Under the pieces are notes generated by a model. It was given only the letters and a program-made list of their open reading frames with translations. It had not been told where the DNA came from and made no database searches. A stretch of 64,000 nucleotides of DNA from Eledone cirrhosa (lineage: Eukaryota), in contig OZ024753.1 in assembly GCA_964016885.1 (NCBI GenBank), positions 41,354,001-41,418,000 on the forward strand. The letters run 5' to 3'. Shown in pieces: positions 10,857 to 53,452 of the stretch. The first letter of the stretch is position 1, and each line of letters opens with the position of its first letter. The translations under genes and the position numbers were made by a program.

Positions 10857-11046
10857 ATAGGAACCAGTAAGACCCCGACAGCTGAGCTCAAGCCGTTTCG
10901 ACGGCTAATTCAGAATTAGCCGTCGAAACGGCTTGAGCTCAGCTGTCGGGGTCTTACTGGTTCCTATTACCCACTCTACTACCTCAAGTATTGAGTACTT
11001 TGGTGCGTTATGGTCCACCTGGTTCCTTACCACATTTCCTTCGGTT
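10857..11046 (+). mobile_element. PLE-like fold-back element, family P1 (55-bp palindrome arms + tail) in (TA)n
   Basis: Palindrome centred at 10912; contains GAAA-CGGCT-TGAGCTC-AGCTG-TC (hammerhead 3' half); tail shared with 18185, 40060 and 54882. Confidence 0.7.
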
Positions 11047-11281
11047 ATATATATATATATATATATATATATATAGTATTAATTATACTATTTATGGTTA
11101 TGTAAATACAAAAACCTTTTGCAGTTATATATATTTTTATACAAACCCTAAATAGTGGTAGGCAGTAATATATTACTACCTTATTACCAGTAAGTTAAGT
11201 AGCTCAATGTAAAAACATCAGATGATTTACAGAGCAGTTATATGAATTATAAGAATAAAAGAACTGTTCAAAACATTTTTA

Positions 11282-11328
11282 TGCTTACAACTGTTTCCTC
11301 CAAACCGAGGTTTGGATTCTTCGGAGCA
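11282..11328 (-). ncRNA. Type I hammerhead ribozyme with CCGAAGA (U4C) core
   Basis: Minus strand: TGCT-CCGAAGA-ATCCAAACC-TC-GGTTTGGAG-GAAA-C[AGTT]G-TA-AGCA; GUA site. Confidence 0.65.
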
Positions 11329-11499
11329 ATTTATTATTGAATGAACACTTATATGACCTCCTTTTCACCCAAGAGACATACAGATACATATGCAAATATT
11401 GTGGGTCAACATTCATTACAGCATTTAGAGTGGCAGTACACACTTAGAGATTACATTCATATTAAAAGATTCAATCAAAAATACAGGTTAAAATACAAC

Positions 11500-11680
11500 A
11501 TGAAAATAAGCGGTTATATAGTGCAAAGGTTATATGTGTGGCAAGCACGTGCGTCTTGTTTATATAGTGTGGCAGAGAGTTACGTGTAGTAGAAGCACTT
11601 AAGCAGGTAAACAAGAGTGTTAGGTTGGTTGATCTGGTGACAAGTTCTTTATATGATTGTTATAGTCTGTGTGTGGAGAA
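11500..11680 (-). pseudogene. Possible decayed GIY-YIG endonuclease segment of a PLE
   Basis: Different minus-strand frames give LVYLLKC and YINKT..L.T.I, resembling PLE VYxIxC...YIGxT motifs; frameshifted; lies upstream of the 11282 hammerhead. Confidence 0.3.
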
Positions 11681-48381: not shown

Positions 48382-51300
48382 AATATGGTTTATAAATATA
48401 GTTTCCATTTGTTAATATATCGTATATATATATATATATTTATATATATATATATATATATATTTATTTATTTATCTATATATATATATATATATGTGTG
48501 TGTGTGTGTATATGTATGTATATATGTGTGTGAATTGTATTGTTTGTGAGAGTAGAAGAGTTACAGAGGAAGTGAGAAAAAGAGAGAAGAGAGATAAACA
48601 AATTGATGGAAAAAGAGAGAGAGTGAGAGTGAAAGAGAGCGAGAGAAAGAGAAGTAACTAAGGAGTGTAAGATATATATATTAAGGTTAAGTATTATGAA
48701 GATAGCAGCGATTCCGGATGAAATCATCACATCTGAGTGTGTTAGTTTAGATATGTGTGTGCTTATCCCTGTACAGATGAGTGCGTATGATTAGTAGCGT
48801 CTTAGCGTAATGATTAACGCGCTCGCACGGTATTCGAACCTCTGTAGCCGCTACTGGACACTTCTTTCGTCTATAGCAGTATTTTACCTGATTTATTATT
48901 TTTATCTTGAATTTATCGCGATGGACTGTTGTTACGTTTATTTTTTGCCTTTGGAATTCTCACATTTTCGAATTTCAAATCAACCAGCTCTTTGATCAGT
49001 CGTACAATTTGTTTACTACCGCAAGCTGATTTGTATAACAACTTAATTTAAAAGGAATGGGTGGTCAGAAGCGTTTTAGCGTAATGGTTAACTCGCTGGC
49101 ATGGTACTTGAGACATACGGGATTCAATTATGTTAGCGGTTGGTGCCCACCTTTTCTGTCATACGGATTTTATTTCATTTTCTAAGCTGTTATCTAAATT
49201 GATCAACAGTTGTTACAGGTCTTTTCTGCGATTTCGATCCAAGTTTCAAATCACTCTGTTTTTTCATAATTCATACATATATATATATTGGTAAACGGAA
49301 AAGAAAATGCTGACAAATTGTTCACAGTGAAAAATAGTTTAATTAGGAATAAGTGAGAATTAGTAATAGTATTGGTTAGTATTCAGTTTTGGTTTTAAGT
49401 TTTACCGGTTGCGCATTTCTAATGCTTTTCAAAAATAATTTTGAGGTAGAGCGCCCGTGATGTTTGCTCTAATCTATATATATATTAGAAAGTGAGGTTT
49501 TTTTTACAAAATGAAAAATAACCGAGGTGTCCTACACGAGTGAAAGTATAAAGAAAAAAAGATGAAATCGAAAATGCAACTGGAGTCTTATTTTTTAAAA
49601 AATATATATATTTATTTGGTTCCTTTACCGGTTTCGCAGTTCTTCTGCTTTTCAAAAGTAGAATTGAGATGGAGGGTCTGTGGTTTTTCTCACATCTGGT
49701 TGGTCTCTGAATGTTACTTGTTTTATATGGAAAAAGTGGCTCGAAATGCCAGGTTTTTCGAGAAGTAATTTGATTGGTTGGTCAATAATTATAATAAATT
49801 TCGCGCCAGTTCGCGTTACAAAGTTCTTCAAACAAGGGGGGGGGGGTCACAGGTTGTTTTTTTCATATATTAGTGTTTGAATTTCTTTTTACTTCAAAAA
49901 AAGGGGGCTCACGAAGGCTTTTTTTTAATAAATGTAATTTGATTGGTTATAAATGAAATTATGGCTGTCACGTGAACAAGTTTTCATTAAATTTTCGCGC
50001 CCTTATATATATATATATATATATAAGGGCGCGAAAATTATATATATATATATATATATATATATATATATATATATATATATGCGAGAAACACAAACCC
50101 TCCATCTCAACATTACTTTTGAAAATCATACAAACTGTGAAACCGGTAAAGTAAATAAATATTCGTAAATATCTATATCTATCTATCTATCTCTCTCTCT
50201 CTATATATATATATATATGTGTGTGTGTGTGTGTGTGTGTGTGTGTGTGTGTGTGTGTGTGTGTGTGTGTGTGTGTGTGTGATTTTTACCTTTCTCTCTA
50301 CCAAACAACAGCCACGGTTTCTGCTATTAACTAAATGTGTGCAATCCGAACAGTTGGTGTGTGTGTGTGTGTGTGTGTGTGTGTGTGTGTGTGTGTGTGT
50401 GTGTGTGTGTGTGTGTGTGTGTGTGTGTAAAATATCAATAATTTTTAAGAGTAGTCGGTGTAGTCTTTCTCTTCTTTTGATTTTGATTTTATTTTCAATC
50501 TAAACTCCGATGATATAACGGGTGTAGCCTTGTTCCATAGATTCAAATTTCCAACTTGTTGTTTCTTTACTCTTTATTATACAATGCTATAGATAATGGC
50601 TTAATAAATCTCTAGTTAGATGCCTTGCCTATGTCGTTCACTGCCCTTCGCTGTAATCAAAGCTAGCTTTTTCCGAGAGATATTTAATCTGTCAAAGCTG
50701 ATGTTTTATGGCTATATATCAGGATTTCTTGGTATATATTGACATTGGAATGGATCATCGTCACTTTCGGCGATGACTGAAACAATCTCCCTCATTGGAT
50801 TAGCGTATAAGTGGCTGAGCATTCCACAAAACACGCGTGTCCTTAACGTCATTCTCACGTTAATGAGATCCACCGTGACACACTGGAAGCCAAACAGTTT
50901 CCGTTTCCGTCTATTCAGTTTCGTACATAACGCATACGTCGACCTGAGACTATCGTAAATGACACGTGACCAAGGTGTCCCACAGTGGCATTGAACATGT
51001 GACCTATAGATTGCGAATCGAATCCTGAACCATTCGGCCTTCCTGCCTCCATTATGAATTTTTTAAAGAATGTTTTATGCAATGATTCTTGTTGCTGTTG
51101 TGTTTGTTGTTGTTGCTGCTGCTGTTGTTGCTGTTGTTGTTGTTGTTGTTGTGGTGGCGTTTGAGATTGGATCGAGGCATAGACCTAAGATCAAAGACAT
51201 TCTAACAATGAAGACCACGTTGTGTCTTTCAGGCATATAAAACTTTTTGCCAAATTACCAGTATTGCACTCGGATAATTGCTGGCCTTGTGCCAAAAGGA

Positions 51301-52569
51301 GAAATAATTATTTAGATATATAATGCGTTTTTCCTTTTTAAGACAATAAGATTGGTTATATATACAAAATGGCTGACTGAATACAGGCGTGCGTTTCTAA
51401 AAAAAAACAATGTTTTCTGTCACCTTTCTCCTCTCACTCACACTCTATCTGACTATTTCATCTTTATTTCTCGTTCTATTCTCTGATAAAGGACTTGTAT
51501 CCGAAAGATTAAGACTCTGTTCCAATTATATCAAGCGTTAAACTAATATATTTCTTCATTGCACTGTGTTGTTTGCTTTGAAATTTCTAGTCCAGTACTC
51601 ACATGCACATGCACACACGCACACAAACACACATATACCCCCCCACACACAAACACACATATACTCACACACACAATTTCAATATCTTGGACGTAGGTAC
51701 TGTGTGTATTGTATACTTGGTTTATCCTATGATGGCTTGTGTTTTTGCTGATGTAATTGCTGTTGGTGTTGTTGGTACTGGTAGTGTTTGTGTGTTGTGT
51801 GTGTGTGTGTGTGTGTGTATGTATGTGCAGGTGTGTGTGTGTATGCGGATTGAGTTTAACCGGATTCTAATTTCAGCACTTCCGGTTTTGTATATTGTGT
51901 GTGTTATATATTCTAAATAGAACTATGTCAAGGTCAACTTTGTTGTTTTCACCATGTATGTTTCAATATATATCTTCTGTTGTGTTGTAACTACTGTTTT
52001 ATTGTTATTGTGGTTTAGTATGAGTCGGTAGTGCGTCAGACAAATGCAGTGCTGTGTTTGTTCCGGCTCTCTGCGTTCTGACCTCAAATAAGGCCGAGAT
52101 AAACTTTGCCTTATATCCGCCCGAGATCGATATAACCGATTTACCCTTGCTTTAAATTTCCTGGTCTTGTGCCTATATTAGACAAACAAGATCAATCGAC
52201 AAGCTCCTGAATTTCCTTCACACACCGAGTGAGGTGGAGCTCGTAAAATATACATATATATATATATATCAAGACACTTTATTTCACGTTGCTCCTTCTA
52301 CCTGGAGTTGCGACCGATAGATAGTACTAGCAACTGGAAAGACCAACGGAGACATTGTTTCCACGGTCCAATTTGACGAAAGTCGATGGATCTTTTATAT
52401 ATATATACGTATATATACTATATTCTATATACATACATATATATATGTGCGTGTGTGTGTGTGTGTGTGTGTGTGTGTGTGTGTGTGTGTGTGTGTGTGT
52501 GTGTGTGTGTGTGTGTGTGTGTGTGCGTGTATTATCTCGGATTGAAATGACTACCACTGTGTCTCATTA

Positions 52570-52760
52570 TGCGGTGGATTGGCAGTATTGTTAGAGGGTC
52601 GGACGCCATGCCTTGCAGCAAAGAGTTAGGTCCCTTTATGGTCTGAGTTCAAATCCCGCCGAGGTTAACTTTGCCTTTCATCCTTACGGGGTTGATAAAA
52701 TAAAGTACCAATAATACATTGGGATAATTGCTGGTCTTGTGCCAAATGTAGAAACAATTA
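52570..52760 (+). mobile_element. SINE family A
   Basis: Full-length match to the family consensus. Confidence 0.85.
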
Positions 52761-52790
52761 TATATATATATATATATATATATATATATA

Positions 52791-53452
52791 TAACTGAACA
52801 AAAAGGAAAAACGAACACAGACATATATATATATATATATATATATATATATATATATATATATATATATATGTGTTCAAATCGTAATGGACCAAAATCG
52901 CTAGGGTGAAAAAAATACTAACTACAGGTTACTGGTTTGTATTTATTTTTCTTGATTTATTCTTAAATTGAGTCCACCAAACCCTATTGTCTGTAGTTTC
53001 TATTTTTTTCACCTTACCGATTTTGGTCCATTACGATTTGAACACATATATATATATGTCTTATATATGTCTTATATATATATATGTCTTATATATGTCT
53101 TATATATATATGTGTTCAAATCGTAATGGACCAAAATCGGTAAGGTGAAAAAAATAGAAACTACAGACAATAGGGTTTGCTTGACTCAATTTAAGAATAA
53201 ATCAAGAAAAATAAATACAAACCAGTAACCTGTAGTTAGTATTTTTTTCACCTTAGCGATTTTGGTCCATTACGATTTGAACATATATATATATATATAT
53301 ATATATATATATATATATATATATATATATGTGTGTCTGTGTTCGTTTTTCCTTTTTGTTCAGTTATATACGGCTCGGAAAAATCTTTTTCCTAGAACTA
53401 ATTTACTGTAATGAGACTATTTTGAGTTTCTAACTCAATAGGAGCTTTTGAT
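52791..53452 (+). mobile_element. Nested fold-back: two inverted copies of a 175-bp TIR element inside a larger palindrome with tail
   Basis: 52872-53046 and 53111-53283 each have ~45-bp TIRs and are reverse complements of each other; outer arms at 52791-52823 and 53334-53366. Confidence 0.75.

Follow-up and report, generated by a model that had tools for sequence, protein, structure and literature searches.

Penelope-like elements (PLEs) of the Hydra clade carry a short bulged hairpin, a real, clade-wide and covarying cis element that is tied to both ends of their insertions. We studied it in a window of 64,000 nucleotides of Eledone cirrhosa DNA (assembly GCA_964016885.1, contig OZ024753.1, positions 41,354,001 to 41,418,000), whose host genome of 3.0 Gb is rich in microsatellites. 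The window contains numerous short mirror-image insertions (stubs), which are flanked by (TA)n runs and bear, on one side only, a tail that does not pair; the arms of several, or most, of them contain hammerhead cores. Mirror arms with a one-sided tail are known anatomy of endonuclease-positive PLEs (PMC8557442, PMC3846280; published work is cited here and below for the available parts of each paper). We consider it probable that Hydra-clade PLEs have two bulged hairpins in tandem in their 5' leader, each a few bases past an end site, that the motif is one of these, and that the pair serves as RNA handles which position the reverse transcriptase (RT).

The genome sample comprised 78 stretches of 10 kb, picked by position, plus the window (844 kb in total). 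A fold-back finder blind to the motif returned 137 raw matches, leaving 96 copies in 37 families after removal of duplicates and of tails shorter than 20 nt. Hydra leaders came mainly from marine metagenomes: a contig scan gave 76 loci (loci from these contigs and from the host genome alike are numbered L), and the 52 with a match reaching the start of the open reading frame (ORF), together with three loci of our own, formed 42 clusters. Sufficient leader was present in 33 of these (30 metagenomic and three own). Leader clusters share ancestry, and shuffle counts are not to be read as probabilities.

The hairpin at the insertion end

A sequence-only reading of the window had named eight places where the inverted copy stops just before RCTC and a complementary GAGY follows. 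All eight are present, with RCTC starting at 10973, 15213, 42873, 43746, 43509, 12193, 53373 and 15822; the coordinate given as 12194 was off by one. GAGY, placed by that reading 10–55 nt downstream, lies 11–53 nt past the end of RCTC. Both minus-strand sites suspected near 11200 and 55056 are hairpins, complete at 11235–11202 and a worn remnant at 55076–55056. The pairing is longer than the proposed stem of 4–5 bp, since an inner stem continues beyond a 2-nt bulge. That is, the full motif is a bulged hairpin composed of RCTC, a stem of 2–7 bp, a variable loop, a 2-nt bulge (TT, TA or TC) and GAGY-ACT. At 10 of the 13 window sites an inner stem of 2–6 bp closes the variable loop, with the bulge between this stem and GAGY; the inner stem is broken in the local copies at 43509, 22986 and 55076. 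The letters of the CTC and GAG half-sites are nearly invariant while 6–106 nt separate them, and ACT follows the 3' half in 40 of 58 cases, thereby forming a GAG-NN-CTC near-palindrome in 23.

In 50 of the 96 tailed fold-backs, which represent 14 of the 37 families, a hairpin starts no more than ~20 nt from the mirror end; among random non-simple positions, the same holds for 140 of 5,000. Fold-back endpoints are thus not random relative to RCTC, and the stem is enriched over background. The gap between mirror end and hairpin is short and fixed, as had been supposed, but measured strictly it is 5–8 nt; the 0–6 nt given before results if TA or TAT letters common to the linker and the (TA)n target are counted as arm. 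The remaining 23 of the 37 tail families are without hairpin. Separately, we noted a common 60-nt tail family (10 of the 96 copies; L044:4717, L077:1890 and others) and several families with tails of 43–44 nt that have no hairpin.

Covariation was assessed in 46 modules, obtained from 51 modules anchored by script after removal of five that were mis-anchored; the three inner pairs played no part in module selection. These pairs were Watson-Crick in 44, 30 and 26 of the 46 modules, compared with 26.2, 13.4 and 12.0 after shuffling and 0–19 in slid controls, and at each inner pair 0 of 5,000 shuffles reached the observed count. Inner pairs had swapped between C-G and T-A and among A-T, T-A, G-C and C-G, and in two clusters (L265 and L284) the outer pair had switched from G-C to T-A in both hairpins. 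Together with the enrichment at mirror ends, the covarying inner pairs bear out the suspicion of a conserved, covarying cis element adjoining the insertion end.

A blind profile, built solely from 46 metagenomic modules and then run over the 844-kb sample, gave 141 matches versus 43 on the reversed sequence. A TA run lies 25–130 nt downstream of 100 of the 141 matches (baseline 263 of 2,000), and a mirrored arm ends just upstream of 46 (baseline 18 of 2,000); when shared TA letters are counted, the offset is 5 in 22 of these 46. The profile found six of the eight sites named before, missing 15822 and 53373, and added sites at 6294, 11809 and 23512. In an Rfam scan of the window, each of the matches listed (150 of 222) stayed below its gathering score, most of them being microsatellite or palindrome hits, and none of them describes the hairpin.

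Twin hairpins and twin end sites

Uninterrupted 5' leaders carry the hairpin twice, with hairpin 2 typically 6–8 nt past the far end of the tail. The single stem that had been placed at the tail start is hairpin 1; its partner, just past the far tail end, is visible only in uninterrupted leaders. A family with an 830-aa ORF has a 137-nt tail, its uninterrupted copies continue into the ORF leader, and its hairpins lie 7 and 8 nt past the two ends. In family A, the hairpins follow the proximal and distal ends after 8 and 6 nt; in family F, hairpin 1 follows after 7 nt and hairpin 2 after no more than 11 nt. In both of these families the twin-module prediction preceded the finding of hairpin 2. 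The corresponding distances are 5–6 and 6 nt in family E and 7 and 6 nt in the L096 family; the L397 family has both hairpins. From 5' to 3', the leader consists of the hammerhead core, 49–81 nt (measured in 14 clusters), hairpin 1, 38–59 nt, hairpin 2, a median of ~27 nt and the start codon. At least one hairpin was present in 27 of the 33 Hydra leader clusters and two in 15, versus 2 of 270 ORF-body windows and 53 of 1,650 shuffles. In the linkers before the hairpins, 325 of 408 letters are A or T. The first inner pair is T-A in 12 of the 20 upstream hairpins and C-G in 25 of the 31 ATG-proximal ones (leaders L209–L284), a positional difference which hints that the two hairpins are not equivalent.

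Inserted copies end 5–11 nt before one or the other hairpin and have tails of 62–169 nt. The arm ends of family A fall into two classes of 16 copies each, with one copy in between. Among the 34 metagenomic loci with both leader and 3' copy, 14 stop at the contig end, and 15 of the other 20 end 0–12 nt before a hairpin. Contigs of run X2, which may be the source of this assembly and is not independent evidence, pass into TA at these two sites as well, with 75 and 313 loose ends there, and the X2 variants inside hairpins, among the 40 listed of 44, fall in loops or change C-G to T.G.

Head-to-head pairs used one arm per site in six of six long pairs of the 830-aa family and in three of three complete family A pairs (checked by hand). 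Scored by script, with duplicates included, the same pattern held for 24 of 24 pairs of family A, 10 of 13 of family B (three without tail) and six of eight of family E, while L017 has tails on both arms. Free site choice would predict 1:2:1 pairing, unlike the 24 of 24 in family A. The tail is borne by the long or the short arm alike. The inverted copy is thus not always tail-less, as had been assumed: the short inverted arm bears the tail in L200, L286, L294–296, L319 and L320, and is tail-less in L289, L349 and L428.

Judging by their ORFs, the window families that we could trace to one (A, B and E) are Hydra-clade PLEs. Family A is the 3' end of an element with a 784-aa ORF, families B and E are likewise joined to ORFs, and in L138, L316 and L319 family E is linked both to the start of a Hydra ORF and to hairpin 2. 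The 830-, 784- and 778-aa ORFs have Y[IV]GxT near the C-terminus, and motifs and homologues indicate a single ORF with RT followed by a GIY-YIG-type endonuclease; a Pfam search of the 830-aa ORF gave no match, the domain calls coming from motifs and homologues. RW[KR] and [AS]DKT were found in L200, L413 and L397, and RWR also in family B, whereas the Neptune controls L139 and L142 carry ADKG. The CxCx5C linker, and the CxxC and CxH motifs that surround the conserved E and N residues, were present in three of three ORFs checked. The Hydra parent elements (families A, B, E and the 830-aa family) are inserted in (TA)n. Putative hammerhead cores, recognised by their match to the core sequence, occur in families B, C and D and in most metagenomic leaders. 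The CUGANGA..GAAA core had no match in the 830-aa family tandem (L189–L191) or in family A (window 10860–10964), in contrast to the description of Hydra elements as all having a hammerhead. For families C, D, F, G and H no ORF-linked copy was found among the loci examined; their hairpin, hammerhead core and (TA)n context suggest assignment to the Hydra clade. Pattern searches for uninterrupted copies recovered one of family B and zero of family C.

Neptune-type ORF elements also end at two sites, and five families inspected by eye were without the motif. Three motif-less tail families match Neptune-type element ends; one Neptune tail has ACTC and a hairpin, with the bulge-GAG half absent. Since the ORF-traced families are all Hydra and the examined Neptune tails lack the motif, we regard it as a Hydra-clade signal, and not as one common to unrelated families, as had been claimed.

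Several other attributions were rejected. Family A next to a Poseidon-type ORF in L075, and a hairpin tail next to a Neptune ORF in L144, are separate insertions into (TA)n. Identity with retrozymes that lack long terminal repeats (non-LTR retrozymes) was discarded because the window stubs are head-to-head pairs, not tandem non-coding hammerhead units, and A, B and E run into coding elements elsewhere. A splice-site or branch-point role of TTGAGY was dismissed on the sequence: the word pairs with the upstream RCTC and covaries with it, and its donor-like letters vary. Stem III of the hammerhead, which also reads ACTC/GAGT in some Hydra elements, is a distinct element lying upstream.

Many near-identical copies with long open frames (830, 784, 781, 713 and 758 aa; L200:2746-5238, L348, L286, L319 and L428) exist in at least five Hydra families, and on these grounds the families have likely been active recently. 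The 830-aa family has a microsatellite-rich 3' region of 4.3 kb and a tandem unit of 6.9 kb. In L140, about 1.7–2.4 kb past the Neptune ORF, two tandem 459-nt units with a hammerhead core in each lie in (TA)n and look retrozyme-like.

A probable start signal for copying

Since inserted copies mostly end a few bases before either hairpin, the hairpins likely tell the element's enzyme where copying starts. The sequence-only reading had offered a second-strand or inverted-synthesis start as one option; the occurrence of the tail on either arm is a better match to two independently primed complementary DNAs (cDNAs), and the near-strict pattern of one arm per site argues for a single complex using both hairpins. 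We lean slightly towards a twin RNA start signal kept across animal phyla, in which one bulged hairpin per subunit of a dimeric, telomerase-related RT sets two internal priming sites on one RNA, which would account for both the one-sided tail and the head-to-head insertion. Telomerase is the sister group of PLE RTs and has RNA elements that position its template, a point of comparison for the hairpins.

In such a scheme, a dimeric RT-endonuclease would bind both hairpins on the sense RNA and nick both strands of the (TA)n target. Immediately 5' of each hairpin lies a short A/U-rich linker, with which a nicked TA end would base-pair so that copying is primed at that place; the resulting pair of 5'-truncated cDNAs would then be linked head to head. 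Priming before hairpin 2 would give an arm that includes hairpin 1 and the spacer, that is, the tail, whereas the arm primed before hairpin 1 would be tail-less and hairpin 2 would never be copied into an end. Reverse transcription would start once per target strand, and the tail would be the spacing between the two starts. For a Poseidon element (PAc, from Anolis carolinensis), reverse transcription has been reported to start internally at two tail-bounding sites, with a protein that cuts and extends both strands and is a predicted dimer (PMC11167929).

The near-invariant CTC and GAG make an inverted pair, and the motif could instead act as DNA: the GIY-YIG endonuclease would recognise the inverted half-sites in a duplex, cruciform or cDNA hairpin and cut the copying intermediate a few bases upstream, so that the ends would be resolution sites. 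The tail has indeed been ascribed to endonuclease-mediated resolution (PMC8557442), and the D. virilis endonuclease needed the tail for DNA recognition (work cited in PMC11167929). However, a duplex site requires neither half-sites at such variable distance, nor covarying inner pairs, nor a one-sided bulge; terminal copies are without hairpin 2, and the Poseidon protein starts internally on RNA (PMC11167929). On this evidence we hold action as a DNA site to be unlikely.

The fixed short distance from end to hairpin would also suit hairpins that direct an RNA cut 6–8 nt upstream, made by an element protein, a host nuclease or a refolded ribozyme and followed by ordinary target-primed copying from the new 3' ends, and RNA-seq reads of the anole element end at the same sites (PMC11167929). 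But the hammerhead core lies too far upstream of hairpin 1 to make site 1, cutting there would part the template from both hairpins, and the pairing of one end per site becomes harder to account for. In the anole element, moreover, the main substrate is uncut RNA (PMC11167929). We regard such a cut as quite unlikely.

Some other leader role, such as translation control, packaging or hammerhead folding, has in its favour the position of hairpin 2 shortly upstream of the ORF start, the A/T-rich linkers and the precise distal end of family B, which forms without hairpin 2; ends would then lie near the hairpins merely because the linker pairs with (TA)n. We find this very improbable, as many other A/T-rich places in leaders and spacers are rarely used (16 and 16 family A ends, one between) and the end-to-hairpin distance is constant across tails of 62–169 nt.

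A number of observations weigh against the twin RNA start signal. Although the distal end of family B is precise, four of four uninterrupted leaders (L428, L363, L422 and L423) are without a canonical hairpin 2, and its position holds only a word resembling the 3' half and a weak stem. One of four distal ends in the L096 family (L286) sits 21 nt upstream of hairpin 2. Of the 20 metagenomic 3' ends, five have no hairpin close by, and among the 15 that do, the end in L236 was scored against a look-alike word. Six of the 33 leader clusters are without a strict hairpin. Outer A.C or T.C mismatches occur in family F, L096 and L397, and single-sequence folding favours both hairpins in only four of eight leaders. 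At the three inner positions, G.T outnumbers A.C by only 10 to 3, counts too few to fix the strand of action. Neptune-type elements form two-site tails without the motif, which therefore cannot be a general cause of tails. For Hydra elements, we infer protein binding and priming from sequence, and in vitro the two start sites of the Poseidon element were used alike on both strands (PMC11167929).

Window features and known systems

The hairpins and stubs of the window are collected in Table 1. Within the family G stub (52793–53364), a second mirror-image element with identical ends is nested at 52873–53282, and the internal TA-rich junction is duplicated. An abundant repeat of other build, possibly a short interspersed nuclear element, occurs at 4896–5410, 14057–14427 and 36828–37704, in inverted pairs and mostly without (TA)n on both sides.

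Table 1. Hairpins and associated insertion stubs in the 64,000-nt window
Feature	Position	Strand	Details
Extra hairpin (not in the sequence-only reading)	6294..6333	+	~70 nt past hammerhead core 6189-6225
Family A stub	mirror arms 10860-10964, tail 10965-11045	+	(TA)n run on either side; 3' end of Hydra-clade PLE; link to 784-aa Hydra ORF in L005, L204, L348
Hairpin 1, family A	10973..10996	+	ACTC, 4-bp inner stem, TT bulge, GAGT; mirror end 8 nt upstream
Hairpin 1, family H	11202..11235	-	GCTC, 6-bp inner stem, TT bulge, GAGC; in L139, a fold-back copy stops 8 nt short of the hairpin
Extra hairpin (not in the sequence-only reading)	11809..11832	+	tail-only stub between (TA)n runs
Hairpin 1, family E	12193..12232	+	GCTC, 5-bp inner stem, TC bulge, GAGC; worn copy, tail to 12270
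Family C stub	arms 14884-15205, hammerhead core 15109-15149, tail 15206-15295	+	mirror arms and tail
Hairpin 1, family C	15213..15232	+	ACTC, 3-bp inner stem, TT bulge, GAGT; mirror end 7 nt upstream
Family F stub	15325..15983; arms about 15325-15515 and 15623-15814, long tail 15815-15983	+	uninterrupted L061 and L134 reach hairpin 2
Hairpin 1, family F	15822..15882	+	ACTC, 3-bp inner stem, 45-nt loop, TT bulge, GAGC; outer A.C mismatch
Hairpin 1, family A copy	18234..18257	-	arms 18266-18343, tail 18265-18186
Hairpin 1, family B copy	22968..22986	-	arms 22998-23113; one inner-stem pair broken
Extra hairpin-like site (not in the sequence-only reading)	23512..23537	+	~80 nt upstream of (TA)n run
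Hairpin 1, family A copy	40229..40252	+	arms 40063-40220, tail 40221-40300
Hairpin 1, family B	42873..42891	+	arms 42769-42866, tail 42867-42933; mirror end 6 nt upstream; Hydra ORF in L362, L428
Hairpin 1, family D	43509..43533	+	arms 43262-43502, hammerhead core 43412-43458, tail 43503-43590; in this copy the inner stem is broken, in L037 intact
Hairpin 1, family B	43746..43764	+	arms 43607-43739, hammerhead core 43680-43702, tail 43740-43807
Weak hairpin 1, family G	53373..53427	+	outer arms 52793 to 53364, tail 53365-53450; two inner G.T pairs only
Worn hairpin remnant	55056..55076	-	tail-only fragment

The origin of inverted PLE insertions with a one-sided tail has been described as unresolved (PMC8557442), and two internal starts have been shown in one element, with no conserved signal in the available parts of that report (PMC11167929). 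If true, twin hairpins would explain this long-puzzling tail. A short covarying twin hairpin whose distance from either end is fixed shows which parts to mutate, the Hydra clade offers many intact, near-identical copies in the Eledone cirrhosa genome, and Hydra stubs without an ORF, which are very common, gain a sequence marker in the hairpin. The sequence-only reading knew of no description of the motif, and a literature search, which did not cover subscription papers and Repbase notes, likewise found none.

The elements studied here share with the published Hydra clade (Craig et al. 2021, PMC8557442) the RW[KR], DKT, CxCx5C, CxxC and CxH motifs and the C-terminal GIY-YIG-type domain, as well as (TA)n targets, tandem and inverted insertions and, in some families, a putative hammerhead in the pseudo-long terminal repeat (pLTR). 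In contrast to the tails of 62–169 nt found here, those described there measure 30–40 bp and are put down to endonuclease resolution, and the available sections describe no hairpin or leader motif. Among the six published new Hydra consensus sequences from coral and sea cucumber, inspected by eye in the parts available, three have a canonical hairpin (Hydra-2_Amil, Hydra-2_Ajap and Hydra-1_Ajap, the last with both hairpins), two a variant one, and one was not assessable.

PAc (Frangieh et al. 2024, PMC11167929) resembles these elements in its two tail-bounding starts, the cutting and extension of both target strands, the predicted dimer and a stem-loop named at the start. It belongs to another clade, however, and its single AC-rich stem-loop lies inside the ORF and itself contains the starts, whereas we found two leader hairpins downstream of the starts; neither a twin module nor cross-family conservation is reported in the available text. 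Penelope elements of Adineta vaga (Arkhipova et al. 2013, PMC3846280) share head-to-head arms, a palindromic junction and a one-sided tail, but self-priming on an antisense template was proposed for them, and no tail motif is described in the accessible part of that paper. The minimal hammerheads known from PLE pLTRs and from non-LTR retrozymes (PMC4209133; 10.64898/2026.07.22.740005, as far as available) correspond to the cores within the arms of most stubs here, from which the hairpins are separate, lying 49–81 nt downstream; unlike retrozymes, which are tandem non-coding units, stubs A, B and E derive from coding elements, of which they are truncated ends. Set beside these systems, the hairpin is new as a cis element, while the retroelements that carry it are of a known kind.

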